A DNA stretch of 64,000 nt from a virus (lineage: Duplodnaviria > Caudoviricetes): IMG/VR virus record IMGVR_UViG_3300042914_002678. One strand, written 5' to 3'. The position numbers and the translations under genes were made by a program. Every line of letters starts with the position of its first letter. Within the stretch, counting starts at the first letter, position 1. Shown piece after piece: positions 16,294-55,353 of the stretch. The notes under the pieces are model-generated. The model did not search any database. It was not told the origin of the DNA and was given only the letters and a program-made list of their open reading frames with translations.

Positions 16294-16297
16294 CTCC

Positions 16298-16774: not shown

Positions 16775-16780
16775 TTAATC

Positions 16781-33536: not shown

Positions 33537-34394
33537 ATGAACAAACCTTTACTTAAATGGGCAGGAAACAAGTATAGGGTCCTGCCCTTTCTTATTCCAC
33601 ATATTGGTTACCCAAAGCGTTATTGTGAACCCTTTGGTGGTAGTCTTGCTGTTGCACTGAATACGCCAGCAGAGCAATACATTCTCAACGATGTGAATAA
33701 AGATTTGGTGGCAATCTACCAGAATCTGGTGAATCCAAATGATGATAATTTTATCAAGTATTGTCAAGAACTATTCACCTCAGAAAATAACACCAGAGAA
33801 GCATACATTGATTTGGTAAAACACTTCAATCAGGCAACAGATTCTGTAGAGAGAGCACGATTATTCATCTATCTAAATCGTCATTGCTTCAATGGTCTGT
33901 CAAGATACAACAAAAAGGGTGACTTTAATGTTCCCTATGGTAGAGAGTTTAAAGATAAAAAAACTGGAGAAAAATACATTCAAAGTGCTTATTTTCCTGA
34001 AGAAGAGATGATGAACTTTAGAATGTATTTTCTCACTAAACAACTGGTAAGGTTCACATCACTTTCTTTTGAAGATCCTTCACTTTATGAAGACCTAGAA
34101 GCGGGAGATGTTGTCTATTTTGACCCACCATATGTTCCTGCTTCAGATACTGCTAACTTTACAAGTTATGCTACTGATGGTTTTACTCACGACCAACAGG
34201 TTCAGTTGGCAAACTTAGCAGAATCTCTTGCTGCCAAAGGTATTAAAGTGATTGTGTCCAATCATAATACACCAGTCACACAAGAACTATACAAAAATGC
34301 TACAATCTATCCTATTCAGGTGACTAGAACTATTGCTGCAAATGGCAATAGTAGGAAGAAAGCAGATGAGTTAATCGCTGTGTATTCTTGTTAG
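33537..34394 (+). CDS. dam: Dam-family (D12 class) DNA adenine methyltransferase, probably GATC-specific
   Basis: LKWAGNK, EPFGGS, LNRHCFNGLSRYNKKGDFNVPYG (Dam recognition hairpin), DPPY, SNH. The stop codon lies inside the first repeat copy. Confidence 0.9.
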   Translation: MNKPLLKWAGNKYRVLPFLIPHIGYPKRYCEPFGGSLAVALNTPAEQYILNDVNKDLVAIYQNLVNPNDDNFIKYCQELFTSENNTREAYIDLVKHFNQATDSVERARLFIYLNRHCFNGLSRYNKKGDFNVPYGREFKDKKTGEKYIQSAYFPEEEMMNFRMYFLTKQLVRFTSLSFEDPSLYEDLEAGDVVYFDPPYVPASDTANFTSYATDGFTHDQQVQLANLAESLAAKGIKVIVSNHNTPVTQELYKNATIYPIQVTRTIAANGNSRKKADELIAVYSC

Positions 34395-34434
34395 GATCGT
34401 CTAAAGTGTCCTAGTAATGTAAGCACACAACACA

Positions 34435-34845
34435 ATGGCAACTCGCTCTCGCATCGGTCTTGAACTTTCTGATGGTTCTGTTCTTTCTGTGTATCATCAC
34501 TGGGACGGGATGCCTTCTTGGTTGGGTCGTATTCTCAAAACCCATTACAATAGCAAAGAACTTGTTGCTGAACTGATTGATGGTGGTGATATGAGTTCTG
34601 CCTGGACTAATGCTGGTTGGAATAATGAAACCCGCAAACAAGGTCCACTCTATTATACTGAGCGTGGTGATGAGTTTATTGCTCCTCGTCTTGATAAAGA
34701 TGCTGGTGAGTTTCTGACTAAAGATGCAGAGGAGTATGCCTATCTTTATACTCAAGATGAAGGTTGGTTGTGCTATGATACTTGTGATTGGCGCGATTCT
34801 TACCTTGAGAGCATTGAAATTCCCTCTGGAGCACTTGCTGTCTGA
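34435..34845 (+). CDS. Conserved phage hypothetical protein (MATRSRIG...YHHWDG)
   Basis: ORF track; first gene after repeat copy 1. Confidence 0.7.
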   Translation: MATRSRIGLELSDGSVLSVYHHWDGMPSWLGRILKTHYNSKELVAELIDGGDMSSAWTNAGWNNETRKQGPLYYTERGDEFIAPRLDKDAGEFLTKDAEEYAYLYTQDEGWLCYDTCDWRDSYLESIEIPSGALAV

Positions 34846-34848
34846 TCT

Positions 34849-35419
34849 ATGAAAACTTCTACTGCTCTTGGTGTTGTCTTCTTTGCAATCGTCATTGTTG
34901 TTGTTTCTGTTTTATTTGAAGCATGGTTGCTTGGACTGATTCTGTCTTGGTTTAATGTATCCTTGACCTTCTGGCAGAACCTTGCTATTGTGGTTCTTGC
35001 TAATATGATTTTCAAAAACTCTGGGGGTTCTTCCAAATGAATCGCAAGTACATCGCCGTATTTGCAATAGGTTTTCTTGCCATTATTGGTTGGAATATCT
35101 TTCTAGTTCAACGCGATGATCGAATGTATGATGCTTACTATCGCACAAAAGCGATAGAAAACCTCAAACAACCTCCTAGTAATCAAATTAGGTGATTTAC
35201 TTTCTTCTCATCTCTGCAGCATTTGGATGGTTCTTCTTCGTACTATTCTCCAAACACTTTGACTACCTAGATAAACGCAAATGATTTCTAAACTCCTTCG
35301 TGAACTGATTATGAACGCTGAACGTGAAAAGATTGCCCGTGAGTTCTGGGAAGAGATTGAACGTGAAGCAGCAAAACTTGAGATTCCTGTAGACTACTAC
35401 CTCGCGGAGTTTTATTGAT
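34849..35419 (+). CDS. Small hypothetical ORFs, several hydrophobic
   Basis: ORF track and hand reading. Confidence 0.5.
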
Positions 35420-35543
35420 GACTTTTATTCTTGGAGTTGGAGTTGGTGTTCTCATCACAGTGGGATTTGCACTTCTATCTGTTGCATCCGATGCTGATGA
35501 TGTGATTGGCAAAGATGACGAAAACTACTACAATAAATAATAA

Positions 35544-35598
35544 TGCCTGCGTTGGGTGCAATCTTCACAGGTAGAGGAGGGGCAGAGATGCTCCTTTT
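35544..35598 (+). ncRNA. Candidate antisense sRNA C upstream of a GIY-YIG gene
   Basis: ATAAATA 35533-35539; stem TGCCTG/CAGGTA; terminator AGGGGCA-GAGA-TGCTCCT-TTT; GTTGGGTGCAAT is complementary to leader ATTGCACCCAAC 35613-35624. Confidence 0.5.
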
Positions 35599-35602
35599 CT
35601 TG

Positions 35603-35610
35603 TATAAATA
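35603..35610 (+). promoter_or_regulatory. T4-type late promoter TATAAATA
   Basis: Exact consensus upstream of ATG 35636. Confidence 0.75.
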
Positions 35611-35635
35611 CTATTGCACCCAACAAAGAGCAGTT

Positions 35636-36337
35636 ATGACTAACAAAGGCAAAATTTATTGTGCCCATTGTATTTTTACTGGAAAGAAATACATAGGACA
35701 AACAAAACAAAAATTACTTTGCGATAGAATAGCAACTCATTTTGCAGATGCTAATAAAAATCATAGTAATGGTAAGTTTCAAAGAGCACTAAAAAAATAT
35801 GGAAGAAGTGGATTTATATGGGGAGTAATTGAAGAGTGTGATTTTGATACGTTAAATGATAAAGAAATCTATTGGATTGCAGAATACAAAACTGTAGAAA
35901 AGGGATATAATCTGTCTCCTGGTGGTGGGCAACCTCCAGAATATTTTTCTAAAGAATATTTGGTAGAAGAACCAAGTGGCAATAGAAAAGAAATTAAGAA
36001 TCTTTCGCAATATTCTAGGGAAAATAACTTAAATGCCGCACATATGCACGAAACACTTTATGGTAAAAGGTTGCACCATAAAGGATATAAACTTATACCA
36101 AGAACTGATGTAGAAATTGAAAGATATGAAAATGAAAGAAGTATAAGAGAGGATACTAGTAGAAAAGGAGCGCCTGGAGAAAAAAATGGTAGAGCGATAC
36201 TTGATTGGGACAAAGTTAATGAAATAAGAAAATTACATAATACCAAGAAATATAAAAATCAAGAAATATCAAATATGTTTGGAATTAAAAAAGTAACATT
36301 AGAAAAAATAGTCTCCAATAAACTGTGGACAGTTTAG
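35636..36337 (+). CDS. GIY-YIG homing endonuclease; true start probably ATG 35636, not 35543
   Basis: KIYCAHCIFTGKKYIGQT...DRIATH...EIYWI...GYN motifs. The late promoter lies inside the longer ORF-track version. Confidence 0.85.
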   Translation: MTNKGKIYCAHCIFTGKKYIGQTKQKLLCDRIATHFADANKNHSNGKFQRALKKYGRSGFIWGVIEECDFDTLNDKEIYWIAEYKTVEKGYNLSPGGGQPPEYFSKEYLVEEPSGNRKEIKNLSQYSRENNLNAAHMHETLYGKRLHHKGYKLIPRTDVEIERYENERSIREDTSRKGAPGEKNGRAILDWDKVNEIRKLHNTKKYKNQEISNMFGIKKVTLEKIVSNKLWTV

Positions 36338-36377
36338 AAACCGAACACTTGACTTTTGCCCATAAAACTTTTATGAT
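36327..36377 (+). promoter_or_regulatory. Early promoter with degenerate palindromic box
   Basis: GGACAGTTTAGAAACCGAACAC; TTGACT 36349-36354, 17 nt, TATGAT 36372-36377. Confidence 0.7.
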
Positions 36378-36392
36378 GTATCTGTTAAACAA

Positions 36393-37969
36393 ATGAGGTT
36401 AATGGCACAAAAGTTTCTCTATATCTTGGACTATTTCGTTCCACAGTTTCAATCGGAATATGGTGGATTGCTCAACGTAATCGCAGAAAATGATGAAGAA
36501 TGTTTTGATGTTGTTGTTGAATGGGATAATGAAACCTGGACAGAATACTACAGCAAACTACGAGAAAACATTGTAAAAGCACAACGCTTTCCTCTTCTTG
36601 AAAACGAAGAATCCCGAGTTGTTGAATCTTTTACCACCTGATGATTGAAACTTCAATAAATCGTCTTGAGTTTAACTTAAAACAGCAGTATCAAGAACGT
36701 ATTACTCATCTTCAGCAAAAGATTACGGAGCAACAACATGAAATCTTGCGACTCCAAGAGCAAATCAAATACATGTCAAAAGACAGATTTTACGATTGCT
36801 GAGTTTCCGCATCATCCGCCCGAAGGTTATAGTTATGAGTTTGAAGAGTTCAAGCGTGGTGTGGTCGCTGTTTGGTTGCGTTGCCATCGTAAGTTTGACT
36901 ACAATAATGGTGCCACAACTCGTACCATTTGGGGATTCTATAAATCCAAAACCAGAGAATACTTCGCCCCAGTCAATAGTAAGACCATCGGTGCTTGTGT
37001 AAATATCAAGGACACGCGGAACTATACCGCGATGCCGATTAAACTTTCACCACTAGAACTTGCATTTGTATGACCTACGAACCACAAGTCAATGATTATG
37101 TAAAATGGACAAAAGGAGTTGAGGGTTGGGTTTACTTTAAGGATAAAGAATACATTACCATTGAGTATAGTGTTCGTCCTAAAGATGAAGTCAACCTTGA
37201 GTGCTGCCCTATCCATAAGAATGAGAGATTACTTGTGATTTGTTATAATGAGCAATGGAAAGAGTTGGAGTACATTACGTCACGAAAATCAATCTATGAA
37301 GAAACAGAAAAATGCTTGGCGATTGCTTGCTAAAGCACTGGGAGAAAAAGCAAGTAAATGTGATAAAGAGGCGGATAGGGTTGCACTTATCCGCCTTGTG
37401 ATGTTTCTGTCTATTCTTATTACCAACTGTTTCATTGTTGCTAATGCTATCAGGCATTGGAATGATAAAACAGAAATCTATTTGATTATTGATGAGAATT
37501 ATGTGCCAAATAGTGGAGTATTAAAGTTAGGATCGTCTAAAGTGTCACTATAATGTAAGCACAGAATCTATGGACTGCTACGACGACATCCAAATTGAAG
37601 AATTGCAAAACTTTGATTTCGTTGGAGAAGATTTGATTGATTTGATTGAAGAAAACAACGATTTCAACATCAAAGATTACATCAACGGCAACTACGATTA
37701 CTGAGTGACAGTTTCCAAACTGTCCACTAAATCACCCACACACCTCTTTAATCCTTTATTATTCTCAAATGACTGAACACATCCCTAACGTGCTGTCTCA
37801 CATTCAAGAACTGAAAGAAACCTGGCGTCGTCAAGATTTCACGTTCACTAAACAGCAACAAGAAGAATACGATCTCTTGCTTGCTACTCGCCGCGAACGT
37901 GTTAAGCAATTCTATGCTGAGGGTCGCGTCTTTAAGGGTTCCTATAAAGCAAAGGAAGAGGACATCTAA
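36393..37969 (+). CDS. Run of small hypothetical ORFs
   Basis: ORF track (36393, 36738, 37070, 37248 with likely start about 37284, 37769). Confidence 0.55.
37707..37727 (+). promoter_or_regulatory. Perfect palindromic box GACAGTT-TCC-AAACTGTC
   Basis: Most symmetric copy of the upstream early-promoter box; precedes ORF 37769. Confidence 0.65.
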
Positions 37970-37998
37970 ATACTAAAAAGTAGTGTTTAGATACTAAA

Positions 37999-38646
37999 AT
38001 GAAAACCTTTCAGGAGTTTATGTCTCTTTGTGAAGCATCTGATGCTGATACTGCAAAGCAACTTGGTTGGGGTGGTGGTGCATCTGTCACCCGCCAAGGT
38101 GAAGGTGGTAGAGTAGGAAGAGAGCGCAAAAAGTCTACTCCTGAAAGACGCAGAGTAAAACACGTTGGTGGTGGTAAAACTGAACCTGTAGATTACAAAC
38201 CACGCAAAGATATTGGTCAACAAAGACAACGTTCTGAGCGTGAACAACAACCAACACAAGAGCGTGGAAGTGCTAGAGAAAGACAACTAGCAGCAGCAAA
38301 AGAAGAAAGAAGAAAAGCAGCACAAGCAAGAGCAGCAGCAAAGAAAGGTGGTGGAGAAACACCTACAGCAGCAAAACCAAAAGCAAAAGAAGTAGCAAAG
38401 ACTGCTACTAAGTTACTTGCAACCAAGAAAGAAAAGAAACCAGTAAGTCCTGACTACAAACCAGCAAAAGCATCTGGTTTGTCTGCAAAAGAAAGAAACA
38501 AGCAGACTAGAGAAGGTGAAAGAATGTTGAGAGGTATAATGAAACAGCAAGAAACTGAGAAGTATAAGAAAGCAACTGGAGAATCGCCAAAAGGTAAAGC
38601 AAAGACCAAGATTCTCGCTCACGTTGAAAAGAGAATGGCAAATTGA
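37999..38646 (+). CDS. Highly basic K/R/A/E-rich protein, probably late-expressed
   Basis: Low-complexity charged composition; late-type TCTAAATA at 37965-37972. Confidence 0.6.
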   Translation: MKTFQEFMSLCEASDADTAKQLGWGGGASVTRQGEGGRVGRERKKSTPERRRVKHVGGGKTEPVDYKPRKDIGQQRQRSEREQQPTQERGSARERQLAAAKEERRKAAQARAAAKKGGGETPTAAKPKAKEVAKTATKLLATKKEKKPVSPDYKPAKASGLSAKERNKQTREGERMLRGIMKQQETEKYKKATGESPKGKAKTKILAHVEKRMAN

Positions 38647-38687
38647 GTTGCCATTAAAGTTAGGATCGCTCAAAGTGTCCTAGTAGT

Positions 38688-39184
38688 ATGACTGATGCCT
38701 TCGCTATGGACCGAATTGAAATCCAACGCAAACTCTATGATGCTCGCAATGAGTATCTGAAGGCAAAGAAGTCTATGGAGTTTTGGAAACGTGAAATCTC
38801 CTTCCTGAAAGAGTGTGAAGACAACCTCAAAAAAGGTCGCACTGGAGATTGGTTATTTGATGAAATGTTTGGCGATACTCCTATTGCTGAAGAAGTCTAC
38901 GGCGGTTGATTGACTGCTACTAGCACCCTCTAGAATCGCCTAGAAGGGTGCTATTCTTGTCTTTAGATACCAAACCACTGAGAACAATGAGTTACATTCA
39001 AATCCCTGATTTTGTGTTTGATAGCATCATCAACAACCTACAAAGAGGTTATGCTGTGTGTGATGCAGTAGACCATAACTCTGAAGAAATAGAGAAGTCA
39101 CCATCCTATGCAACTGGGTACAGTCGTGCTACAATAGCAAGTGTACTTGAAGACCTGAAGCGATACAAACAAACTGTGAATTAA
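38688..39184 (+). CDS. Two small hypothetical ORFs separated by a hairpin (38921-38953)
   Basis: ORF track; TAGCACCCT...AGGGTGCTA inverted repeat. Confidence 0.55.
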
Positions 39185-39216
39185 AGTTAGGATCGTCCAA
39201 ACTGTCCCAATACTAG

Positions 39217-40461
39217 ATGATGATACCAATGCAAATCCAACTCCGCCCCCATCAAGAACGTGGTGTTGCTGCTATGCAGAAGCACAACAAAGGTCAAATC
39301 ATTGTGCCTACTGGTGGCGGCAAGACTCTCAAGATGATCTATGATGCTCTGCGACAGTTGCAGTCTGAAACTCCGCAGACCATTGTTGTAGTTGCTCCGC
39401 GTATTTTGCTTGCTGAGCAACTCTCTTCTGAGTTTCTTGAGTTCATCACTAATGCTAAAGTCTTCCACGTCCACAGTGGAGAAACTCACCACGAATCTTC
39501 TACTCGCCCTCAAGAGATTCGCAACTGGGTTGAGCGCAATGCTGGCAATCATCGCCTGATTGTAACCACCTACAACTCTCTGTCGCGTCTTCAAGTGGCA
39601 GAGATTGATGTGGATACGATCTACTTTGATGAGGCACATAACTCTGTTCAGCGTCACTTTTTCCCTGCAACTGAGCACTTCTCTGCTAACGCAAAGCGTT
39701 GCTACTTCTTTACCGCAACTCCAAAGCATAGTCTTGCTGTTGGCAAACCTGGGATGAATGATGCTGCTGTTTATGGTCAGGTCATCTGCAAAGTTCCTGC
39801 TCCTGAGTTGGTTGAAGGTGGTTACATTGTGCCCCCTAAAGTCATCGTCAAGCAACTTGCTATGGTGACTGGAAAGCAGACCAACTTTGACCGCGACGCG
39901 GAGAATCTGCTGGAAACGATTGACGACAACAAAGTCGGCAAGATTCTGATTTGTGCTAAGGCAACCAAGCAGATTGTCTCCCTGGTGTCTGAAACTGATT
40001 TCTGCACTCAACTAGAGTTTCGCGGATACTCTTGGATGTATATTACTGCCAAGACTGGAGCAGTCATTGATGGTCGCAAAGTGAACCGTGAGGTATTCTT
40101 TGACACCCTATCTGCCTGGGGCAAAGACAACTCCAAGAAGTTTGTGGTTCTGCATCATAGCATCCTCGCAGAAGGCATCAACGTCAGCGGTCTGGAAGCA
40201 GTGCTGTTTCTTCGCAACATGGACTTCATCGGTATCTCCCAGACCATTGGACGTTGCATCCGTTTGCATCACGATGATGCCAAAGGTATGCGCGATGGAC
40301 GTATTGAACCTGGCAACCTGAGTCAGTATAGCAAATCGTTCGGTCTTGTGTGCATCCCTGTCTACAGCAAGGTTGGTATTGCTACTGCCCGCAGTGTTCA
40401 GTCGGTTGTTGACACTATCTTCCAGAAGGGCGAACCTGCCATCTCTGTGGTGAGGCGGTGA
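39217..40461 (+). CDS. SF2 DEAH-box helicase, copy 2 (start may be ATG 39229)
   Basis: LRPHQ, PTGGGKT, DEAHNS, FTAT, EGINVS, QTIGRCIR; colinear with 12312-13544. Confidence 0.9.
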   Translation: MMIPMQIQLRPHQERGVAAMQKHNKGQIIVPTGGGKTLKMIYDALRQLQSETPQTIVVVAPRILLAEQLSSEFLEFITNAKVFHVHSGETHHESSTRPQEIRNWVERNAGNHRLIVTTYNSLSRLQVAEIDVDTIYFDEAHNSVQRHFFPATEHFSANAKRCYFFTATPKHSLAVGKPGMNDAAVYGQVICKVPAPELVEGGYIVPPKVIVKQLAMVTGKQTNFDRDAENLLETIDDNKVGKILICAKATKQIVSLVSETDFCTQLEFRGYSWMYITAKTGAVIDGRKVNREVFFDTLSAWGKDNSKKFVVLHHSILAEGINVSGLEAVLFLRNMDFIGISQTIGRCIRLHHDDAKGMRDGRIEPGNLSQYSKSFGLVCIPVYSKVGIATARSVQSVVDTIFQKGEPAISVVRR

Positions 40462-40579
40462 GTCTCACCCGAGACTCAAGTGCTGGTCATGGGTCAAACC
40501 CTGATTTTTTTGCAATTCTACCTGGAGGGTGTCATAGGTTATCCTCCGCAACCAAATCAACGATTTTTTTGAAAGTATA

Positions 40580-40756
40580 ATGAAAGAAGGATTTACAATG
40601 TTCAAAGACACCTATGCTGCTGTTCCTTATGGTAATCAACTGATGGTCATTCACAACGGAGAGCAACTCAAAGTGTGCAGGACCGAAGCATCAGCTAGAA
40701 AGTTCATTGATGACCACAAAAAAGGTAAATCAATGGCAAAACTTCCTGTCAATTAA
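40580..40756 (+). CDS. 58-aa hypothetical protein, paralogue of 13720-13953
   Basis: Hand translation MKEGFTMFKDTYAAVPYGNQLMVIHNGEQL...; stop TAA inside repeat copy 5. Confidence 0.7.
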   Translation: MKEGFTMFKDTYAAVPYGNQLMVIHNGEQLKVCRTEASARKFIDDHKKGKSMAKLPVN

Positions 40757-40786
40757 AGTTAGGATCGTCTAAAGTGTTCCCATAGA

Positions 40787-41542
40787 GTGAGTGCTCCCAC
40801 AATGCAACAAGTAATCAAGCAACTGATTGAGGATTGTACCTCTCATCTTCCTAAAGCATTGCGATGGTACACTGATGTCAACCAACCGATTAAGGTGATT
40901 GATGATACCCTCAGTGAGGTCATCCACGCATACTGCCACAACACAAGATGTGGTGGTTCTGGTGGTGGTGGATGGGACCACGTTGATAATGGCGAAGACA
41001 AGAATAGTTCGCACATTCAATCCTACATCTGCCCTGATTGTGGTAAGAAAGTAGTATTCTTTGCTGAGCAATGCCCCTCTTGTGGTAGTACAAAGCGCGG
41101 TAAGATTCCTCACGATGGACGTTGGGGAATCAGTGCATCTTCTCACTTTAAGTGGTATGATGAACTAAAAGAATACCGACTCCAACTGATTGAACCTCTG
41201 ACAGATGATGCTTCTTGTCGTCAGTTTCGCCTGCGTTATTGGGTGCTTGCTAAAGACTCTGAGCACCTGAATCTTTATGCAAAAGCACAACTAGAGAGTC
41301 CAAAGTCTAATCACATCAACTTCCAACCATTGAAGGTTGATTTCTACCTGAGTCGCCCTATTCTCAAGTATGATGGTGTACTCACCATCCACGATGATCG
41401 TACTCAATTTGAGTTTGATTTCTTTGATTTGGATAACCAAACTCCTGAAGAAATCCCTGTAGAGTATGCTGGTGCAAACTCCCAAACTGTGGTAGAATCT
41501 AAGAAACTTGGCAAGGAGCGTGGAGAATGGGTGAGGAACTAA
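40787..41542 (+). CDS. Putative restriction-type endonuclease with Zn ribbon
   Basis: CPDC...CPSC; GWD...GEDK resembles a PD-(D/E)xK core; overlaps the downstream methylase by 16 bp. Confidence 0.4.
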   Translation: MSAPTMQQVIKQLIEDCTSHLPKALRWYTDVNQPIKVIDDTLSEVIHAYCHNTRCGGSGGGGWDHVDNGEDKNSSHIQSYICPDCGKKVVFFAEQCPSCGSTKRGKIPHDGRWGISASSHFKWYDELKEYRLQLIEPLTDDASCRQFRLRYWVLAKDSEHLNLYAKAQLESPKSNHINFQPLKVDFYLSRPILKYDGVLTIHDDRTQFEFDFFDLDNQTPEEIPVEYAGANSQTVVESKKLGKERGEWVRN

Positions 41543-42450
41543 TTTACAAGAATCAAGACTGTATTGAGTTCCTCCAGTCCCTAGAAAGTAGGTCTGTAGA
41601 TTTAATCTGTACAGACCCACCTTACTATCGTGTTGTCAACGATGAGTGGGACAATCAGTGGTTCACTATAGACCAATACTACGAATGGTGTGAGCAGTGG
41701 ATTACTGAGTTGGGTAGAGTTGCCAAGTGGGGATGTAGTTTCTGGTTGTTTGGTTTCCCACAACAACTCTGCAATCTTCTGCCTGTGATTGAACGTGCTG
41801 GATTCACATTCCGTCAGCAGATTGTAGTGAACAAAGGGATGCAAGCAGTTGCAGGTAGAACAAGTGATAAACTTAAAATGTTTCCTACTGCCACCGAATC
41901 TATCTTCTTCTTTCACTATGAAGCAAGAGATTACATCCGTGATTTACTACAGGCAGAGCGTAAAAGATTGGGGTGGAAAGGTTGCGACGTGAATGGATTT
42001 CTTGGTAAAGCAACAACAGGTGGTGGCACATTTGCTTGCATTGCATCCGAAAAGAAACCACGGGAGCATAGAGTCTACCCTACCAGAGATGATTGGACTA
42101 AGTTACAAGAAGTAATGAATCTTCCTGAGTATGATGAACTGGTCTACACATTTAATTTACAGCGAGGTCTGACAGATGTGTGGGATGACATCAACTTCTA
42201 TGACCGCAAAGTTGAGAAGTTCCATAGCACACAGAAACCTATTCCGTTAATGGAAAGGTTAGTGCTTACTTCATCCAAACCAGGGCAAACAGTTCTTGAC
42301 ATTTTTGGTGGATCAGGTTCTACTGGTGTTGCTTGCAAAATGCACGGAAGAAAGTTCGTTGGTTGTGAAGTTGATGAGACATACTATCAGAAGTCACTGC
42401 AAAGAATTGAAAGCACAGAAAAACAGTCAACTCCTATTGATTTCTTCTGA
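41527..42450 (+). CDS. Beta-class N6-adenine/N4-cytosine DNA methyltransferase
   Basis: DCIEFL...DLICTDPPY near the N-terminus, HSTQKP, and VLDIFGGSGSTGVA...FVGCE SAM-binding motif near the C-terminus. Confidence 0.9.
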   Translation: MGEELIYKNQDCIEFLQSLESRSVDLICTDPPYYRVVNDEWDNQWFTIDQYYEWCEQWITELGRVAKWGCSFWLFGFPQQLCNLLPVIERAGFTFRQQIVVNKGMQAVAGRTSDKLKMFPTATESIFFFHYEARDYIRDLLQAERKRLGWKGCDVNGFLGKATTGGGTFACIASEKKPREHRVYPTRDDWTKLQEVMNLPEYDELVYTFNLQRGLTDVWDDINFYDRKVEKFHSTQKPIPLMERLVLTSSKPGQTVLDIFGGSGSTGVACKMHGRKFVGCEVDETYYQKSLQRIESTEKQSTPIDFF

Positions 42451-42485
42451 ATTAAAGTTAGGATCGTCCAAACTGTCCCAATAGT

Positions 42486-43409
42486 ATGAGCAAGCAACCA
42501 ATGCAGAACAAGCACCTAGAGCATCCTGAAGATGAGATCCTGACGGGCAATCTGTCAGTTCTGGATTGGTTCTCTGAGGTAGATTCTACCATCAGCATCA
42601 AGATGGATGGTGCGCCTGCTATCGTTTGGGGAACTAATCCTCAGAATGGTAAGTTCTTTGTTTGCACGAAAGCAGCATTTAACAAGAAAAAGATTCGCCT
42701 TTGCTATAACGAGGATGACATCTTCACTCATTTCGGTGGACAACCTCGTGTAACTCAAATCCTCATTTTCTGCCTGGATTTTCTGCCTCGCACTAAGCAA
42801 GTGCTGCAAGGTGATTGGATTGGTTTTGGTAGTGGGTTGGATACATTTACTCCCAATACAATTACCTACAAGTTCCCTGCACCAGTTCGTCAGGACATTA
42901 TCATTGCTCCGCATACAATCTACAGCGGTTCTGATGACATCCGTGAGATGATTGCTGCTCCTCTGCAATCCAAACTCATTAGCACTAAGCATTGCCTGTT
43001 TGTGCAACCTGAAGTGGAACTGAACCCTTATCGTGAAGATTTGGAGGATGTGTGTAAGTTTGCCAAGCAAATGAGCACTCTGTGTGAGTTTGTGACGCCG
43101 AACAAAGCAACACAAATCAAAAAAGAGATTAACGCTTGCATCAGGGAGCAAATCCCCGTGAATGAAAATGAAATTGCAGAAAAATGCGATTGTGACATCA
43201 ACCTGATTCGTTTGTGGAAACTCGTTGCATCTATCAAGGAAGATTTGTTCCTGTTCATTCACGAGAAGGATGAGATTGAGTGTTACATTCACGATGTGCA
43301 ATCCTTCCACGAAGGTTATTGTATCACCAACAAACACGGCATTTATAAAGTCGTTGATCGTGAAGTATTCTCTCATGCCAACTTCACCATCGCTAAGAAT
43401 TGGGGTTGA
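42486..43409 (+). CDS. Conserved cyanophage-type protein with a KxDG motif (possible ligase/nucleotidyltransferase-like fold)
   Basis: NKHLEHPED...SIKMDGAPAIVWG...QGD...HEGY...YKVV. Confidence 0.45.
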   Translation: MSKQPMQNKHLEHPEDEILTGNLSVLDWFSEVDSTISIKMDGAPAIVWGTNPQNGKFFVCTKAAFNKKKIRLCYNEDDIFTHFGGQPRVTQILIFCLDFLPRTKQVLQGDWIGFGSGLDTFTPNTITYKFPAPVRQDIIIAPHTIYSGSDDIREMIAAPLQSKLISTKHCLFVQPEVELNPYREDLEDVCKFAKQMSTLCEFVTPNKATQIKKEINACIREQIPVNENEIAEKCDCDINLIRLWKLVASIKEDLFLFIHEKDEIECYIHDVQSFHEGYCITNKHGIYKVVDREVFSHANFTIAKNWG

Positions 43410-43444
43410 ATTAAAGTTAGGATCGTCCAAAGTGTTCTAGTAGT

Positions 43445-43879
43445 ATGACAACCACAACTTTCGCAGAATACGCTGCACAAGCAGAAGCAAAACAAAACAT
43501 TGCTAATGCTGTTCTAGCACATACTTACGCATTGTGTGAAGCATTGCGTCAAAACTACATCGACTATTCTATTCGTAGTCATCAACTTCGCACTTCTGAT
43601 GTAGAGTATCATGATGCACAGATTGCTAAACTTAAGCAAGGAACTTGTGATTATGATTTCTACCCCGAGACTGGTAGAAAGTATCATAAAGTTATTCTGA
43701 ACGCTGCTGGATCTCGTTCGGTTCATTGTTTCATTGACAAGCAAACTGGTGAGGTTTATAAGTCTGCCAGTTGGAAGTCTCCTGCCAAAGGTGTACGTTA
43801 TGACCTGCGAATCATAGAGCAACGTGAATGGTTGCTTGAACATGCAGATTGGGCAGGTGCCTATCTTTACCAGCGTTGA
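43445..43879 (+). CDS. Conserved phage hypothetical protein (GRKYHKV...VHCFID...YKSASWKSPAKGVRY)
   Basis: ORF track; starts at the end of repeat copy 7. Confidence 0.7.
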   Translation: MTTTTFAEYAAQAEAKQNIANAVLAHTYALCEALRQNYIDYSIRSHQLRTSDVEYHDAQIAKLKQGTCDYDFYPETGRKYHKVILNAAGSRSVHCFIDKQTGEVYKSASWKSPAKGVRYDLRIIEQREWLLEHADWAGAYLYQR

Positions 43880-46122
43880 TGTATCTTCAAACCCAAATCT
43901 TTTCCTTAATGGCTGACTACCAACAAGAAATTAAAGACCTAACAGTAACACGTTCCCTGCGTCTGCTGCGTGATGGTTTCAAGAGTGATTTTGCGACCTT
44001 TGCTTATGCTGATGAGAGAATGAACACTCTTTTGCAACAACTAGCAGCAGAGTTTGTTGATGCCAACATTCCGATTGTTGATGAGGATGTTGAGGTTGAC
44101 TTGGCACTGATGCTGATGGAATCTGTTGACATTATTGCACGATGACTTACTCCAACCTCTCAAAGATTCGTCCTAAATTGAGGACACAAGGCAACATCAC
44201 TGGTAACTTTGGACGTGCTAAATCTAAGGCAGGTTCTCCACTCAATGACATTGGTGGTGATGGTAACATAGGAGCAACACAAGATGAATACCTAAACCGT
44301 CTTTATTATGCTTTTGATAACACTACCGAACCTAAACTTCGTCAGTTCATTTATCAGGAAATCCGTAAAATCCACATCCAAAGAGGCACCTGGTAATGCA
44401 AATCCTCTTGAATTAAAGTTAGGATCGTCCAAAGTGTCCTAGTAGTATGAGCAACACTAACATCGTTTCCGAAATCTACTCCTACCACACGAATTGGAAG
44501 GAAGGTAAAGTCAACCAGATGTGGATTGAGCAGTCTGGTGATGAATACAAAGGTTATTCCTATGTCGCTGTTGCACACAATCCCCGCAATGGTAAGACGA
44601 TGGAAATGTCCAACCCTCGCACATCTTACCAGGAAACTCTAAACTGGGTTCGTGGTTGGTGTGGAACTTTCTGTGTTCTTCCTGCCTGATTGATTATGAC
44701 TATCCTAGCAACTGACATTCTCCTGCTACTCAACAAAGTACAGCAACTTGGTGCCACTTATAACATCAATCAGAATGATGATGGGTTTATTGTAGAAATC
44801 CGTTATAACTGGTGGGATGATAATGAATGGTATTCCAATAAACTTTTCATCACAAATGAGAGTGAATCTACTTGGCAAGAAGGTGATTATGAGTTTAGCA
44901 ACATGATGACTATTCTTGATGAGAAACTAGAAGAGCAAAGGCAAAAAGAAGAAAAGGCACAAAAGCGTAAAGAACTCATCAATTCTCTCACACCTGAACA
45001 GCGCGAACTTCTAGGAGTTTAAGTAATGAAAAACTATCGCGTTCGAGTTGAAACCTATGATGGATGTGTGACCATTTGGTATGAGAAATCCAAGGCAAAG
45101 ACTGCGGACAAACTTATACTCAATCGCGTCTACAATCAACTCTGTGGTCTAAACATCAAAGAAATCTCTGTTAATCCTTCTGTATGAAATACGTTGTTGA
45201 ACTCTACATTGGTGGCAAAGTCTTCAAGGAAGAAGTGTATGCTACCAACCCAAAAGATGCGCGTGAAACTGCCATTGCTCGCAATCCTACCGCAAAAGTT
45301 GTTGGTGTCAACGTAAGTTTCAAGTAATTAAAGTTAGGATCGTCGAAAGTGTCCTAGTAGTATGAGCAAAACATTCACCGTCCGTTTCGTATCCGATGCC
45401 CTGGATTCTCCAGAATACATTGGACCTTTCTACTCTGAAGATGAGGCACAAGATTATGCTGATGATCGCAACAGTTCTTTAGCATTATCTGGTATTCCTT
45501 CCTCTGTTGCTTGTTACTCTGTTGTTGACTGATTATGAGAACTCTTACACTCCAAGTCACCGAAGTTACATTTGATTTTGATGACGAAGATTTCACCGTA
45601 GAAGAACAACAATCGGTCATCAATTCTGTTGTTGGTAATGTCTTTGAGGTTGAAGTTGATGATGACGATGATGATGAAGCAATCGCAGATGTGTTAGTTG
45701 AAGAGGTGACAGATTACACTGGTTGGTGTGTTTTTTCCCTTGATTTTGTCCACGTTCTGAATACTCATTGAAATGAGAATTGCTCTTTTGATTGCTACTC
45801 TTGCACTCGGTCTTAAAGTAGGTTTAGCAGCACATGCTACCGTGAATGTGTATCAAGAACAGCAAGCAGAAAAGTTCTGCCAAATTGACCCTAACTATTG
45901 CAACGCAAAATGACTCTTTCCTCTGACCAACTTTCCAAACTTGTTCAACTTTATGCTGAGCGAGTTGTTGATAGCATGGATGTGCGCGATTTGTGTGCAT
46001 TTGCCATTGATACAATTTGTGACAACATGCACGACTATAATGAGTCTGAATTGATGGAAGAATTGTCACACTATTATGAAGAAGATGAACTCAACGAACT
46101 GGTTGAATCTGTAAAGGATTAA
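43849..46122 (+). CDS. Run of small hypothetical ORFs within repeat-bounded modules
   Basis: ORF track plus hand-read 45184-45327 and 45362-45532. Confidence 0.55.
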
Positions 46123-46169
46123 AGTTAGGATCGTCCAAAGTGTTCTAGTAGTATCAGCACCGAACCACA

Positions 46170-46760
46170 ATGAGCAAACTAACAACGAATGAGGTTTATG
46201 GCAAACTGAAAGTAACTGATTTCAGTGTATTTGAGAAACCTGGAAAGAACAAAGGTGCTCGTGGGCAACTGTTAGAAATTGCCCTTGGAGTTCCTAACTC
46301 TTCTGACCTGCAAGATCTGGAAGATGGAGAGATTAAGACTTTCACGATTGGTGAAAGCATTGCAGCAACACAGTTGAAGCATTGTTTGTCTGAAATCATC
46401 GAAGATTCTGTATCTTTTGAGAATAGCAAAGTCGGGCAGAAACTGAAGCAAACTCTTTATGTTGGTTTCACCCGTAGCAATGATTATGTCGGTTGTGCTG
46501 TACTGAATGAAGAAACTGATCCTCAGCACTATAACGAATTGCGTGAGGATTATGAGTTCATTTGTAACAGCATCCGCACACTTTTCAATGCTGGCAAAGA
46601 ACTTTCTACCATCACTGGACCTCACGGATTGCTGCAGATTCGCACCAAAGCATCTAAAACCAACGGTCGCTATGTACCTCTGACCTTTGCAGGTGTGACC
46701 CTGAAGGATAAAGGAATGGCATTTTATTTGTGTGGACAATTCGGACGCAATCTGTTCTGA
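46170..46760 (+). CDS. MutH/Sau3AI-family endonuclease
   Basis: NKGARGQLLEIALG..NSSD..D...GEIKT matches the MutH KG..G.LLE..LG...D.....ELKT pattern; LLQIRTKAS and AFYL match the MutH C-terminal LQIRPKA and FYL motifs. Confidence 0.75.
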   Translation: MSKLTTNEVYGKLKVTDFSVFEKPGKNKGARGQLLEIALGVPNSSDLQDLEDGEIKTFTIGESIAATQLKHCLSEIIEDSVSFENSKVGQKLKQTLYVGFTRSNDYVGCAVLNEETDPQHYNELREDYEFICNSIRTLFNAGKELSTITGPHGLLQIRTKASKTNGRYVPLTFAGVTLKDKGMAFYLCGQFGRNLF

Positions 46761-46795
46761 ATTAAAGTTAGGATCGTCTAAAGTGTCCTAGTAGT

Positions 46796-48778
46796 ATGAG
46801 CATCACACTTGACCTTGAAATGGCATCCGAACTAATCGGATTTATGAATGACTTTCCTGTTGCAGATTTGAATGATTGTGTAGACTTCATCTGTGACAAG
46901 TTTGACATCTCTGCATCTGATGAGTTGATTGATGCTATCGCTGACTTTTTCTTTGCTAACTGATAACAAATGACACACTACAATCCTTATGTTCAAAACC
47001 TGATTGAGATGGGTTATGATGAGCAAGACTGCCGTAATGTTGCTGCAGTTGGTGAAACAAACGTAACCTATCCGCGTACCATTCACTGCCGCACATTTGC
47101 AACTGAAAGTGAATACAAGGAAGCACTTGCTGATTTCATCAATGGAATGTAATGAGTCGCAAAACTTTAACATTCAAGTCACCTTGTAAAGTGAAGACAA
47201 TTCTTCTCATTTTCATTGTTGCGTTTATACTTTCACCAGGAGTTCGTAACACTACCTCAAGCACATTGCACACTGTAGCAGACATTATTTCAACCAATGA
47301 TTGAAACTCAATTCTTTATTCTTGATGCTGAACAATTCCAAGAATACACACAATTAGCAGATGAGGTTGGTGTTACATTAGACTATTATTTGTCTGAGTT
47401 TTGTGATGTCGAAGGACCAACCATTACTAGCAATTAAAGTTAGGATCGTCGAAAGTGTCCTAGTAGTATGAGCAACACTTCAATCAACTACAATCTCATC
47501 AAGCAACAACTTGGCACTGTTGTGATTGATAGCAACTGGAAAGAATACGTCGTTTCTGATTATAAGATTGGATGCGATGCTTACCAACTCTGGAACAAAG
47601 AAGAGCAGCAGTATTATTATACTGACTACAATGCCTTCAATGCACTTTTCACTCAAATCTCTGGTTGATTTCTAACACAAACACAATGACTCAAACTGAC
47701 ATCAACAATGCAATCAATGCTGCATTTGATAATCTTTTCTCACTGAATGAGCAGTTGTTTGATTATTGGTATTGGGAACTTCACAAGACTAATGATTACC
47801 CAATCTCTGAGCGTTGGAATGAACAAACACTGTATCAGATGGAGAAGGATGTGATGATGAACTCCTGAGGCAATTAAAGTTAGGATCGCCCAAAGTGTCC
47901 TAGTAGTATAAGCACAACCACAAAACCACAATGCGAGTCATCGAAAAGCAAATGAATGATGCAATCTCTCAAGAGATTGATTGGAAGAAAGATAACACTG
48001 AAGTTATCAACATTGAAGGTGTATCTTTTGTCTATCTGTATAACAATCTGATTGCAATGGTTGCTGATACTTGGTTGGAATTGTTTGATGGCGGACATAA
48101 GACTGCAACCACCAAGTCTCGCCTTAATGCTATTCTCCAAGCACATGGAAATGGAGAGTACATTTTCCAGAAAAACTTTGAGTGGATTGTTTATACCAAT
48201 CAAACCAATGTTCCTTTCAACAATGGTATCAAACTGAACTGATAATACAATGACAAAATCGTTCAAAAAGTTCATCTGGAAAGACTCTAACTCTGACCAA
48301 ACAAAAGTTATCATAGCAAGGTCAGAATACTCAGCAAGGAAACAAAACTTTGGCAATCTTGCTGGTTATCTTTACTCTCACTCTGTTCCTCTTAAATGAC
48401 ATTCACGATTCGCTATTTCACTCCTTATCAGCAACAGTGGAGGACGCAAAGTTTCTCTACATTAGAAGAGGCAGAACGCATGGTTGAGTTTTACAAATCG
48501 TGTGGAAGTCCTGCTGAATTGGTCAACAACTAACTCTCTCAATGTTACTCTCCAAGTCTTCATTCAACGACCAAAAAGTTCTTCCTTTCATTGTTAAGAA
48601 AGAAGCAAAAAGAACTGAAGATGGTGTCTACTCTCTACACCTATTCTCCCGAATTGTGATGACTAAGGAAGGGAAGAAGTATAGGTATCTACCTCTTAAG
48701 TTTGAAGGTGAGTTAGCAATGTTCCGTAAAAGAAGGGATGCAGAAGATTATGCAAGGTACAGATTAGCACTTGATTGA
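46796..48778 (+). CDS. Run of small hypothetical ORFs (46796-46963, 46970-47152, 47297-47437, 47468-47668, 47665-47868, 47931-48242, 48542-48778)
   Basis: ORF track and hand translation. Confidence 0.55.
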
Positions 48779-48896
48779 ATACACATAGGGAGCAATCATC
48801 AGCATCCTTTTTTTATGCTTATTTGAGTGATTTATAGTAAAAAAACAATAAAAAACGATTAAAAATGTATTAAAAAATGTATTTGAGTGTTGTAAA

Positions 48897-49027
48897 TCAT
48901 TCTCAATAAGTTATAGTTTATTGAGAATCATTAGGGGTTATTATTGAGAATGAGGAGGGCATTTATGACCAATTAAATGTGCTCAGACCTTGTGTTTATA
49001 GTCAATTAAATGTGCTCAGACCTTGTG
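48897..49027. repeat. Iteron-like cluster: three copies of TTATTGAGAAT (one inverted) and a 25-bp direct repeat
   Basis: ATTCTCAATAA 48899-48909, TTATTGAGAAT 48918-48928 and 48941-48951; CAATTAAATGTGCTCAGACCTTGTG at 48970-48994 and 49003-49027. Confidence 0.85.
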
Positions 49028-49142
49028 ATCTTAGCGTGCATGATAACACGACCCCGCAAAAATGTCAAGACCCCCCGCGTTCTCAAATCCCCACAATCCC
49101 CCCGCACAAATACCCCACCCCATCATAAATACACCCTAGGAC

Positions 49143-49171
49143 TTGACACAAACACCAGAGCATCTTACAAT
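49143..49171 (+). promoter_or_regulatory. Near-consensus sigma70 promoter
   Basis: TTGACA 49143-49148, 17 nt, TACAAT 49166-49171; gene start ATG 49199. Confidence 0.75.
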
Positions 49172-49198
49172 ACCTCTATACACATTCGGAGCGTACTT

Positions 49199-50308
49199 AT
49201 GTCAGTTGCTTATCAGACAGCACAGAAGCAGCGTTATAGAATCACTCTGGATCTATCAGTGTTCGGTGACTTCGACCCACACCAGATTGACTGGGAGAAG
49301 TTATTCAAGTTGGAACCTGCAGAGAAGTGTGATGCCTACGTTGAGGACCTAAGTGTACCTGACCGCTGGTGATGTGTAGGGGAATTAAAGTTAGGATCGT
49401 CCAAAGTGTCCTAGTAGTATGAGCACTCCTACCCGCTACAACTTCCAGACTGGGCAATACGAACCACTGCCCGATTATCTACTCAATTCCCCCAATTATC
49501 ACGGGGACTTTGATGACAACTGGACCGCTGATGATTATGATCGTCGCCGTGCGGAACGTGATGGTTGGACCTCTCAAGTTTGGGACGGTCGCTGACTCTA
49601 ACTCTTTCGTCCTTAATTAACACTCACTCTTCAAAAATGACTGTCACTTATCAGCGTAATCTACTCTCCACTGAGTATAACGGTTGGGAGAATTATGAGA
49701 CCTGGAATGTTGCTCTCTGGATTAACAATGATGAGGGTTTGTATCACCTCGCTATGGAAGTTGGCAACTACGTTGACTTCATTGATCTGCTGAATGATCA
49801 GGGTATTGTTAGCACTCCTGACGGGGTTAAGTATAACGACCCCGGGGTAAATGTGGTCCAATTGAATAGCGATGTGTTCGACCTCTGATTAACACATAAG
49901 ACACACACAGTTATTAACACTCTCATGCGTTACATTCCACAGTCTAAGTATTCGTTTGATGAGATCTGTAAGCAATGCTCAGATGCCATCAATCGTCCTT
50001 CAAGTGTGAACATCAAACCCATCACAGTTTCTTATGATGAGGTGCGTAAGTTTTACCACTACAGCAACTCTCTGCTAGTCGCACGGTAAGCATCACACAA
50101 GGGAATAAGATGCGCCCTATAAAGACACTTACTTGACACACAGTTTCTTACACTTTTCTTCTTTATTATGACCAAGCAAGTTCTCACCTCTCTGCTTGCC
50201 CAAGGTAACACTGGCACTGAGATTCTGTCCATTCTGGATGCAATCGTTGCTGAGCAATCCTCTGAGCAGGGTTATAACGAACCCACTGCAGATAGCATCG
50301 AGTTCTGA
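49199..50308 (+). CDS. Small hypothetical ORFs (49199-49372, 49419-49595, 49637-49888 with YNGWENYETWNVALW, 50168-50308)
   Basis: Hand-refined starts from the ORF track. Confidence 0.55.
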
Positions 50309-50318
50309 TACTAACTGT

Positions 50319-50346
50319 GTGCCCCTTGGTTGACACTGAGGGGCAC
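50319..50346 (+). terminator. Stem-loop closing the early island
   Basis: GTGCCCCT / AGGGGCAC inverted repeat after the last small ORF. Confidence 0.5.
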
Positions 50347-50696
50347 TTATGTTATTATGCGTTAATGTAGTCGTTTGGCAGTTAATTGCGGGCGGTTGTT
50401 ATAGGCGCGTGGCGGCGTTGCGTTATAAAAAACCCAAACTACCCTAACCTACAGAGGTGACAAAACGCGAACGATATATCAATCTCAAAAAAATTTTCCG
50501 GAAGTATGATTAGTCTTAAAAACCCCCGCAGATATACACGGAGGGCACCATATTGGAATTTTTGGAAGGTTGTATTGGCGGGATGGATGATTCGTTATCC
50601 ACGCCCCTTTTTTGTTGCACTAGGATTTTGTGTGGTTGTGATATATAATGCGGTATCAAAATAAGATCGAAAGAAAAAATTCCGGAGATATTTTTT

Positions 50697-50897
50697 ATGA
50701 CTCATAACGAAAAAATATATCACATCTATGCAAAGGATAAGTGTATCTTTCATTCTCTGAGAGAGGAAGAGTTTGATACAACATGGAATACTTTGAAGAA
50801 TCTTGTTGGTCTAATGAAAACTGATTATAGTGAAAGTGATTTAAGTTATGAGGAACTCTTAGTAAACAAGAAGGTGGTTGGCGATTCTTCTTATTGA
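50697..50897 (+). CDS. Small hypothetical protein
   Basis: ORF track. Confidence 0.55.
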   Translation: MTHNEKIYHIYAKDKCIFHSLREEEFDTTWNTLKNLVGLMKTDYSESDLSYEELLVNKKVVGDSSY

Positions 50898-50923
50898 CAA
50901 ACACATATATAGACTGTTAAAAT
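50894..50923 (+). promoter_or_regulatory. Sigma70-like promoter
   Basis: TTGACA 50894-50899, 18 nt, TAAAAT 50918-50923, preceded by TGT (extended -10). Confidence 0.6.
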
Positions 50924-50947
50924 TGAACTTGATGGTTGATTTAACTT

Positions 50948-51715
50948 ATGGCAAAAGGATTTACTGTTAAAGCTACTGCACCAAAACCCAAAGAAGTCGA
51001 ATGGGATATTGATGCAATTAAAGAAAGAATGAAAGGTAAGAGTATTGTATTCTGTCTTCCTGGACGTGGATGCTCTTTTATTTTTCTGAAGAACTTTGTA
51101 CAACTGTGCTTTGATATGGTACAGAATGGTATGAGTATTCAGATTTCTCAAGATTATTCTTCTATGGTTAACTTTGCACGATGCAAATGTCTTGGTGCAA
51201 ATGTTCTTCGTGGACCAAAGCAAATTCCTTGGGATGGTAAACTGCAGTATGATTATCAACTTTGGATTGACTCGGATATTGTCTTTGACACTAACAAGTT
51301 CTGGCAACTCTGTGATCTTGCTCTGAGTGAGGATGGTACAGAACGTGAAGTTGTTGCTGGTTGGTATGCTACAGAGGATGGACACACAACTTCTGTCGCA
51401 CACTGGTTAGAGGAAGATGATTTCCGCAAGAATGGTGGAGTGATGAATCATGAAACCGTTGATTCTATTCAAAAGCGTAGAAAGCCCTTCACAGTGGATT
51501 ACACTGGATTTGGTTGGGTACTGATTAAGAAAGGAGTATTTGAGAATCTCGAATATCCTTGGTTTGCTCCTAAGATGCAAGTATTTGAATCTGGGAACGT
51601 ACAGGATATGTGTGGTGAGGATGTTTCATTCTGTCTTGATGCTAAAGAAGCAGGCTTTGAGATTTGGTGCGATCCTCGCATTCGTGTTGGACACGAAAAA
51701 ACCCGTATTATTTGA
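50948..51715 (+). CDS. Glycosyltransferase-like (GT-A fold) conserved cyanophage protein
   Basis: YDYQLWIDSDIVF DxD motif; GFGWVLIKKGVFE; GEDVSFC; VGHEK. Confidence 0.65.
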   Translation: MAKGFTVKATAPKPKEVEWDIDAIKERMKGKSIVFCLPGRGCSFIFLKNFVQLCFDMVQNGMSIQISQDYSSMVNFARCKCLGANVLRGPKQIPWDGKLQYDYQLWIDSDIVFDTNKFWQLCDLALSEDGTEREVVAGWYATEDGHTTSVAHWLEEDDFRKNGGVMNHETVDSIQKRRKPFTVDYTGFGWVLIKKGVFENLEYPWFAPKMQVFESGNVQDMCGEDVSFCLDAKEAGFEIWCDPRIRVGHEKTRII

Positions 51716-51728
51716 TTAGGAGATTATT

Positions 51729-51869
51729 ATGGCAAAGGGCGGATCTAATAAAGTACTTTTTCAACCTGGAGCACCAAAGAAAACTCGCCAAGGACGCTCC
51801 CCTCGCACATTACTGAGTCCAACTTCTCGTAATGGACGCAAGAAAAAATATCGCGGTCAAGGCAAATAA
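51729..51869 (+). CDS. 46-aa basic protein (..RKKKYRGQGK)
   Basis: Hand translation; GGAG ribosome-binding site upstream. Confidence 0.65.
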   Translation: MAKGGSNKVLFQPGAPKKTRQGRSPRTLLSPTSRNGRKKKYRGQGK

Positions 51870-51876
51870 TATAGAT

Positions 51877-51903
51877 AAAGCAGGAAGCAATTCCTGCTTT
51901 TTT
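51877..51903 (+). terminator. Rho-independent terminator
   Basis: AAAGCAGGAA-GCAA-TTCCTGCTTT followed by a T run. Confidence 0.75.
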
Positions 51904-51913
51904 ATTAGGTGTT

Positions 51914-52609: not shown

Positions 52610-52844
52610 AGATGAAAATTTTATGAAAAATCAGTGGGGAACTGAGTTTTTATCATCAGAATATGGTTGGGAACAGAAAATCAACAAGCAGAGAATGCTT
52701 CGTGAGATTTCAAACGATGATCTAACACCAAAAAAGCATGATTTTTTCCATCAAAACGAAATTCACTCAAAAATTCGTAATGATGAAGACTATGATGACT
52801 GGGAATATGGCACTGAACCACTCTATGAATCAAAAAATCCTTAA
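52590..52844 (+). CDS. Hypothetical acidic protein
   Basis: ORF track. Confidence 0.55.
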   Translation: MTKKVDKDENFMKNQWGTEFLSSEYGWEQKINKQRMLREISNDDLTPKKHDFFHQNEIHSKIRNDEDYDDWEYGTEPLYESKNP

Positions 52845-52870
52845 TAAATAAGGTAGAATTGTAATATTCA

Positions 52871-53272: not shown

Positions 53273-53274
53273 AA

Positions 53275-55335: not shown

Positions 55336-55353
55336 TAAAAGTAAGATAGTAAA

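Follow-up and report, generated by a model that had tools for sequence, protein, structure and literature searches.

A MutH-like nuclease that accompanies Dam in T4-like cyanophages and may act with it as a restriction-modification-like pair

Introduction

What does a MutH-like nuclease do in a lytic phage that also encodes Dam? T4 uses hydroxymethylcytosine to mark its DNA as distinct from that of its host. The DNA of T4-like cyanophages is made of ordinary bases, and there is no settled account of how it escapes when host DNA is degraded. The question is raised by a 64,000-nucleotide stretch of IMG/VR virus record IMGVR_UViG_3300042914_002678, which is referred to below, at its full length, as the window. 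The source virus is a T4-like cyanomyovirus whose nearest isolates are Kyanoviridae. A sequence-only reading of the window had noticed a single-gene module with MutH-like motifs between two copies of a junction repeat that contains GATC in every copy, together with a Dam-type methylase at 33537. It had proposed that the nuclease discriminates host or competitor DNA, or that it nicks newly replicated repeats to stimulate cassette recombination. The features themselves were recovered as described (Table 1): the interval assigned to the module, 46118-46800, is made up of one open reading frame (ORF) and both bracketing repeat copies, and GGATCG is present in 14/14 copies of the repeat. Of the interpretation, the membership in the MutH/Sau3AI family and the tie to Dam stand, and the nicking of GATC repeats does not.

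Table 1. Location of the nuclease gene, the dam gene and the junction repeats in the window
Feature	Position	Strand	Basis or remark
Phage Dam, D12-class, GATC N6-adenine methyltransferase family	33537..34394	+	TIGR00571
Array of early-region gene cassettes, 14 copies of ~36-43 nt junction repeat	34383..49419	+	MutH-like gene is one cassette
Repeat copy 10	46117..46153	+	GGATCG; nuclease start codon 17 nt downstream of repeat
MutH-like endonuclease gene, 196 aa	46170..46760	+	ORF and profile matches
Repeat copy 11	46760..46796	+	GGATCG; first base is last base of nuclease stop codon; terminal ATG starts next ORF

The phage nuclease is homologous to MutH without being an orthodox MutH

The nuclease falls into PHROG 15364, a group without assigned function, and its database labels are either hypothetical or 'MutH' by automatic transfer; no publication describing a Dam-tied MutH-like nuclease of cyanophages was found in the literature. 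Searches with the single sequence gave nothing significant in Pfam (MvaI_BcnI at E 0.13) and a spurious repeat-protein match alone in the PDB, and a profile of 14 phage sequences found no PDB match. Matches to solved structures required a deeper profile of 61 sequences (alignment A2), taken from the 185 clusters returned by an exhaustive representative search. With this profile, MutH of Escherichia coli (E 7e-17) and of Haemophilus influenzae (E 1.3e-16), Sau3AI (E 2.5e-6) and BcnI (E 9e-4) were matched. The MutH models of NCBIfam match residues 17-195 of the nuclease at E 1.4e-11 and 2.2e-8. The nuclease has the PD-(D/E)XK fold with the two-arm clamp of the MutH/Sau3AI/BcnI superfamily, and its AlphaFold2 model built with A2 reached a pLDDT of 96.1 and a pTM of 0.90.

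The protein is thus a real MutH homologue of the MutH/Sau3AI family, but not an orthodox MutH. It scores 44 bits on the MutH equivalog model TIGR02248 (cut-off 243) and 33.6 bits on NF003458 (cut-off 230), and none of the 61 diverse relatives comes near the equivalog score (best E 1.2e-17); the nuclease family is therefore a separate clade of the superfamily. The phage protein is trimmed at each terminus relative to MutH of E. coli and H. influenzae and has about 30 residues fewer. It has no match to the Sau3AI family model NF040973: Sau3AI, a GATC type II restriction enzyme of about 490 aa, consists of two tandem domains, the second being a non-catalytic MutH-like effector domain, whereas the phage protein is a single domain. 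Moreover, the methylase that partners Sau3AI is a C5-cytosine enzyme, and Dam methylation does not block Sau3AI. Similarity to the monomeric restriction enzymes BcnI and MvaI, which cut at CCSGG and CCWGG, is much weaker, as the family-profile value for BcnI indicates.

To compare individual residues, the phage family was aligned with MutH of E. coli MG1655 and the numbering was verified by script (Table 2). K28, E36, D49, E54, K56, K91, R158, K160, F185 and Y186 are invariant in 14/14 phage homologues. Among the 61 family members, D49, K56, K91 and K28 are invariant in all, and the equivalents of MutH E56, D70, E77, K79, K116, R184, K186, F211 and Y212 are the majority residue (51-61/61). The nuclease therefore has the Asp-Glu-Lys of the superfamily with both the auxiliary Glu and the auxiliary Lys, and it retains the GATC contacts and the methyl sensor of MutH (R184, K186, Y212) as R158, K160 and Y186. 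Tyr212 of MutH is, according to a published study, the residue that senses whether GATC is methylated (PMC3848065). Profile and structure comparison with MutH and Sau3AI thus bears out the kinship suggested from the motifs. In a recent MutL-MutH structure, activation by MutL is passed on by MutH E68, H112 and H115 (bioRxiv 10.64898/2026.04.21.719898). The equivalents of these three residues are replaced and unconserved in the phage family, which is not the pattern of a latent enzyme activated by MutL, and independence from MutL is predicted.

Table 2. Residues of the phage nuclease and their equivalents in E. coli MutH
Phage nuclease	E. coli MutH	Remark
K28	K48	conserved
E36	E56	auxiliary Glu
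D49, E54, K56	D70, E77, K79	catalytic triad
K91	K116	auxiliary Lys
R158, K160	R184, K186	DNA contacts
F185, Y186	F211, Y212	Y212 is methylation sensor
Q48 (relatives K/T/N)	E68	MutL response lost
K87	H112	MutL response lost
Q90 (relatives E/A)	H115	MutL response lost

At the protein level, the nuclease is 67% identical to its counterpart in isolate S-CAM7 and 55-58% identical to those of the S-RIM8, S-IOM18 and WH25-B group. Megablast of the region against isolate phages gave no match. The exact region was found in lake-water metagenomes of 19 studies, and members of the nuclease family abound in metagenomes from lakes and the ocean. The gene might be suspected of being a selfish or decaying passenger, a restriction-modification (R-M) remnant that spreads by way of the junction repeats and benefits the phage little, because its position relative to dam varies and because it lies among other mobile nucleases in the window (HNH at 16298, GIY-YIG at 35543). 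Against this, more than 800 clusters at 90% identity, from lake and marine lineages, are full-length proteins with invariant catalytic residues, and the gene is kept in 25 isolates. We regard the passenger explanation as very improbable.

The nuclease is always found with Dam and can be fused to it

Assignment of the methylase at 33537 to the Dam family is clear, with 247 bits on TIGR00571 against a cut-off of 115. The protein aligns over its full length with EcoDam (E 2e-64) and has the EcoDam-type DNA-reading hairpin and the DPPY motif; its next solved relatives, DpnM and T4 Dam, are both GATC enzymes.

Dam is present in 25/25 isolate records that encode the nuclease. Five large viral contigs have no dam within 6 kb of the nuclease, and all five (four at least 96% complete, one 78%) carry it 11-35 kb away. 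Among partial viral contigs that are 41-68% complete, Dam scored above the cut-off in 3/5, which is no argument against co-occurrence because these contigs are fragments. Within IMG/VR, dam lies within 6 kb of the nuclease at 19/80 loci, on either side and with a smallest gap of 30 nt. It follows the nuclease directly at some of the loci (gaps 30-92 nt in L011-13, L046 and L070), and elsewhere it is found 1-2 kb downstream or 4-5 kb upstream. In the isolates S-RIM8, KBS-M-1A, S-IOM18, S-RS29, S-H25, WH25-B, QB2 and S-M1, dam is located immediately upstream, with a gap of about 70-90 nt, and in S-CAM7 32 kb separate the two genes. Dam is encoded in roughly 64 cyanophage records and the nuclease in 25; since in these records Dam is found without the nuclease and the nuclease never without Dam, the distribution of the nuclease is nested within that of Dam. 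S-RIM50 and S-RIM12, for example, carry Dam and lack the nuclease.

The closest form of linkage occurs in S-8S29 (L090:610-2088), where replacement of the dam stop codon leaves dam and the nuclease in a single ORF of 492 aa. An independent metagenome contig carries this fusion at 99% identity, and a second contig carries a 493-aa version from the same protein cluster. Both halves of the fusion proteins (P0272, P0273 and P0282) have intact catalytic motifs. MutH is a Dam-directed mismatch-repair nickase; the phage protein differs from it in that it can be fused to Dam. In the wider family, whose cellular distribution was sampled through three representatives, the distant member P0162 overlaps an N6_N4 methylase gene convergently on a metagenome contig with otherwise bacterial-looking genes (PdaC, SepF). 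This arrangement is the usual layout of a type II R-M pair. The phage genes also agree with what is expected of type II systems, in which a nuclease is always accompanied by a methylase and usually adjacent to it: many relatives have the two genes side by side and S-8S29 has them fused. Judged from residues and linkage, nuclease and methylase probably share a recognition site, and methylation would block the nuclease. What is new is the setting and not the fold: a MutH descendant in lytic cyanophages that is strictly tied to Dam and sometimes fused to it.

Several further features of the dam locus were observed. The dam stop codon lies inside repeat copy 1. A DUF6551 gene (314 aa, 32589-33533) ends 3 nt ahead of the dam start codon, so that co-transcription of both is possible. 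The related viral contigs G210, G213 and G214 encode another Dam-family paralogue, whose weaker score of 82-87 bits is under the cut-off and which in some related phage contigs stands beside the main Dam or in its place. In S-RIM8-type phages, the dam and MutH-like pair is followed directly by a helicase gene.

Dam is rare, and MutL and MutH were not detected, in the likely host family

The psbA gene of a related viral genome is closest, at 92-94%, to those of freshwater and brackish Cyanobium and Synechococcus. In five of these Cyanobium and Synechococcus genomes no Dam-family protein was found, and Dam was above the cut-off in 4/201 sampled genomes of the host family, that is, it was lacking in 98% of them; the control, Synechococcus elongatus, which is not a picocyanobacterium, matched. 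In accord with this, the GATC methylase DmtA has been described as near-universal in cyanobacteria, picocyanobacteria excepted (PMC4390886). The MutH-like profile matched 0/201 host-family genomes (positive control 3/3), and mutH is reported to be absent from all cyanobacteria (PMC5101192). MutL (TIGR00585) was above the cut-off in 0/101 picocyanobacterial host-family genomes, G006 among them, and in 0/4 related large viral contigs; 11/14 control genomes, including S. elongatus, passed. The density of GATC was 8.5 per kb in 80 kb of a Cyanobium genome (71% GC) versus 2.6 per kb in the window.

With MutL in 0/101, a MutH-like protein in 0/201 and Dam in 4/201 of these genomes, canonical mismatch repair is implausible, and it was set aside because MutL was not found in the sampled host-family or related phage genomes. 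A less canonical version is that, in hemimethylated DNA of the phage itself, the nuclease nicks the newly made strand, which is still unmethylated, either to mark strands for mismatch correction or to provide 3' ends for recombination-dependent replication. T4-like phages do rely on recombination-primed replication, MutH is the closest solved relative of the nuclease, the methyl-sensing Tyr is retained and the nuclease is always found with Dam, all of which would suit such a role. However, MutL is the obligatory activator and coupler in canonical repair and was not detected in the host-family genomes or related viral contigs sampled, the residues through which MutH responds to it are not retained, mutH is reported to be absent from cyanobacteria, as cited above, and fusion to a methylase suits an R-M enzyme better than a repair nickase. 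We consider self-nicking improbable.

A restriction-modification-like pair directed against unmethylated GATC DNA

The reading we favour, and to which we give an even chance, is that the MutH-like nuclease and Dam may constitute an R-M-like pair acting on unmethylated GATC DNA, mainly the host chromosome; GATC specificity and methyl sensitivity are suggested by the retained residues. The nuclease would be a single-domain MutH-family endonuclease, predicted to be active, that recognises GATC and cuts only strands with unmethylated adenine, independently of MutL. Incoming virion DNA, methylated by Dam, would be spared, while unmethylated GATC DNA in the infected cell would be nicked, and two nicks at one site would produce a break. 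In BcnI and MvaI, a MutH-like monomer is able to break both strands through sequential nicks. The phage pair would be directed mainly at the chromosome of a Dam-less picocyanobacterial host, which is dense in GATC, and secondarily at the DNA of Dam-less co-infecting phages. The earlier suggestion of discrimination against host or competitor DNA survives to this extent, since it fits a likely host family in which a Dam-family methylase is rare.

The nearest functional parallel is the chlorovirus GATC pair M.CviAI/R.CviAI of PBCV-1, in which a virus of a phototroph likewise encodes its own GATC N6-methyladenine methylase and a GATC nuclease (in the phage, a predicted one), and in which the proposed use is likewise attack on host DNA with viral DNA protected. 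Chlorovirus restriction enzymes are packaged and are presumed to initiate the degradation of host DNA within minutes (PMC7248222, PMC7019647). PBCV-1 differs in being a giant virus of eukaryotic algae, its two genes are always adjacent and its enzyme is packaged in the virion.

Several observations weigh against the R-M-like pair. E. coli MutH alone nicks weakly and is latent. In the window, 11.8 kb lie between the two genes, and the nuclease is accessory, with roughly 39/64 Dam-carrying cyanophage records being without it. MutH E91 and F94 are replaced by A65 and Q68, because of which the recognised site might deviate from exact GATC. Among the classes of GATC methylase, the search in the hosts was confined to the Dam family. 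Phage Dam would methylate host DNA too, and therefore discrimination between self and non-self would be only kinetic. Finally, nascent hemimethylated phage DNA, the preferred substrate of MutH, would itself be at risk.

With the same enzyme chemistry, the selected role could instead be the exclusion of co-infecting or superinfecting cyanophages that lack Dam methylation, host damage being a by-product. Dam is carried by 36% of cyanophages, about a third, so that unmethylated rivals should be common (PMC12801897). The nuclease is, in addition, an accessory mobile cassette in a hyperplastic early region, as is typical of conflict genes, and Dam accompanies it always. On the other hand, the chlorovirus restriction enzymes were tested and are not responsible for mutual exclusion (PMC7019647). 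We see the exclusion of rival phages as a possible but unlikely primary role.

If the R-M-like reading is correct, Dam and the MutH-like nuclease would give T4-like cyanophages a simple self-mark with a matching nuclease, and would represent a phage-borne R-M-like system directed at a host family with few Dam-encoding members and no MutL in the genomes sampled. A MutH descendant would then act outside mismatch repair and free of MutL, and the S-8S29 lineage would offer a natural methylase-MutH fusion. If the nuclease is indeed a small GATC nickase that is methyl-sensitive and independent of MutL, it could serve as a useful reagent. Phage-host pairs are available in culture (S-RIM8, S-CAM7 and S-8S29 on Synechococcus WH7803 or WH8102), so that the idea can be put to a direct test.

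GATC in the junction repeats is lineage-specific

The nuclease gene is one cassette in an array delimited by junction repeats, all 14 of which are intergenic and on the plus strand. Ten copies are within 3 mismatches of a 33-nt consensus, versus none in 100 shuffles. The remaining proposal of the sequence-only reading was that the GATC in these repeats is targeted after replication, stimulating cassette shuffling. In the window, 14/14 repeats keep GATC even though the 34.4-49.5 kb interval has 29 GATC sites versus about 80 expected, 14 of the 29 being repeat copies, and cassette content differs between contigs with identical nuclease. Comparison with relatives largely refutes the proposal. The downstream half of the repeat (AAAGTGTCC..TAGTAT..) is common to related lake phages, whereas the upstream box is swapped: it is GGATCG in the window and GGATCC in L038, but GGGCCC in L017 (nuclease 89% identical, dam present), GAGCCAC in L059 and CTCACC in a lake strain (run X17) with about 97% DNA identity in the nuclease gene (20 differences and 2 gaps in 608 nt). 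S-CAM7, L072 and L084 have unrelated junction repeats of a promoter and stem-loop type, the core of which is without GATC. Relatives with both enzymes thus have the repeat scaffold without GATC (L017, L059 and the lake strain), and therefore the link between nuclease and repeat fails; of the expected co-occurrence, nuclease and dam hold together and the GATC repeats do not. The nuclease also has no extra domain for reading repeat context, and in T4-like phages homologous recombination alone explains repeat-mediated cassette exchange at the junctions known as PeSL (PMC2839356, PMC4122927). We find repeat targeting scarcely credible as the general role.

A narrower version confined to the lineage of the window, in which the junctions would be preferred Dam and MutH-like nickase sites because they keep GATC against a threefold local depletion, is highly improbable in our estimation. 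Hemimethylation after replication would there lead to nicks, or to a methylation-dependent switch of transcription, at cassette borders, and these could couple replication to early-gene shut-off or to cassette shuffling.

The depletion of GATC was itself considered as a signature of the nuclease and rejected, because the early region avoids many other 4-bp palindromes more strongly. Observed/expected ratios in 18000-49460 are 0.26-0.36 for GATC, 0.03 for AGCT, 0.04-0.27 for TCGA, 0.15-0.23 for CATG, 0 for CCGG and 0-0.13 for GGCC. In the structural-gene regions (1-18000 and 49460-64000), 4-bp palindromes are much less avoided, and the ratios for GATC are 1.17 and 0.66.

The array resembles the PeSL cassettes of T4-like phages, with repeated regulatory junctions around single small ORFs, hyperplastic early regions and variable content. 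It differs from them in that the repeat often ends in the next start codon, has no obvious terminator hairpin and has its upstream box swapped wholesale. Within a genome the downstream half is uniform among all repeat copies, and between close relatives the upstream box is replaced wholesale; a box swap with uniform copies is concerted evolution of a regulatory junction. In many copies (42486, 43445, 44447, 45362, 46796, 47468 and 49419), the next ORF starts with the ATG that ends the repeat (GTAGTATGAGCA), and its start codon is therefore overlapped by the -10-like TAGTAT. The mRNAs would then be leaderless or initiated elsewhere, unless the repeat is no simple sigma-70 promoter; a consensus promoter scan did not pick up the junction repeats.

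Other features of the window

One lake DNA run contains a joint from 45372 to 46759, which fits a cassette-less variant and a repeat-induced assembly join equally and was not used. In the one RNA run that contains a small part of the region, no contig lies on the nuclease gene, which says nothing about expression. A second methylase gene, N6_N4_Mtase (41527-42450, E 6.5e-38), overlaps the 3' end of a 251-aa ORF (40787-41542) that has no Pfam match; together they fill a repeat-bounded cassette (40787-42450) that is possibly another R-M-like unit. The window also has two paralogous ResIII/DEAD-box helicase genes, at 12312-13544 and 39217-40461. Just upstream of the last repeat copy, at 48962-49027, a non-coding 33-nt unit forms a tandem pair in perfect register, the two units being 91% identical.

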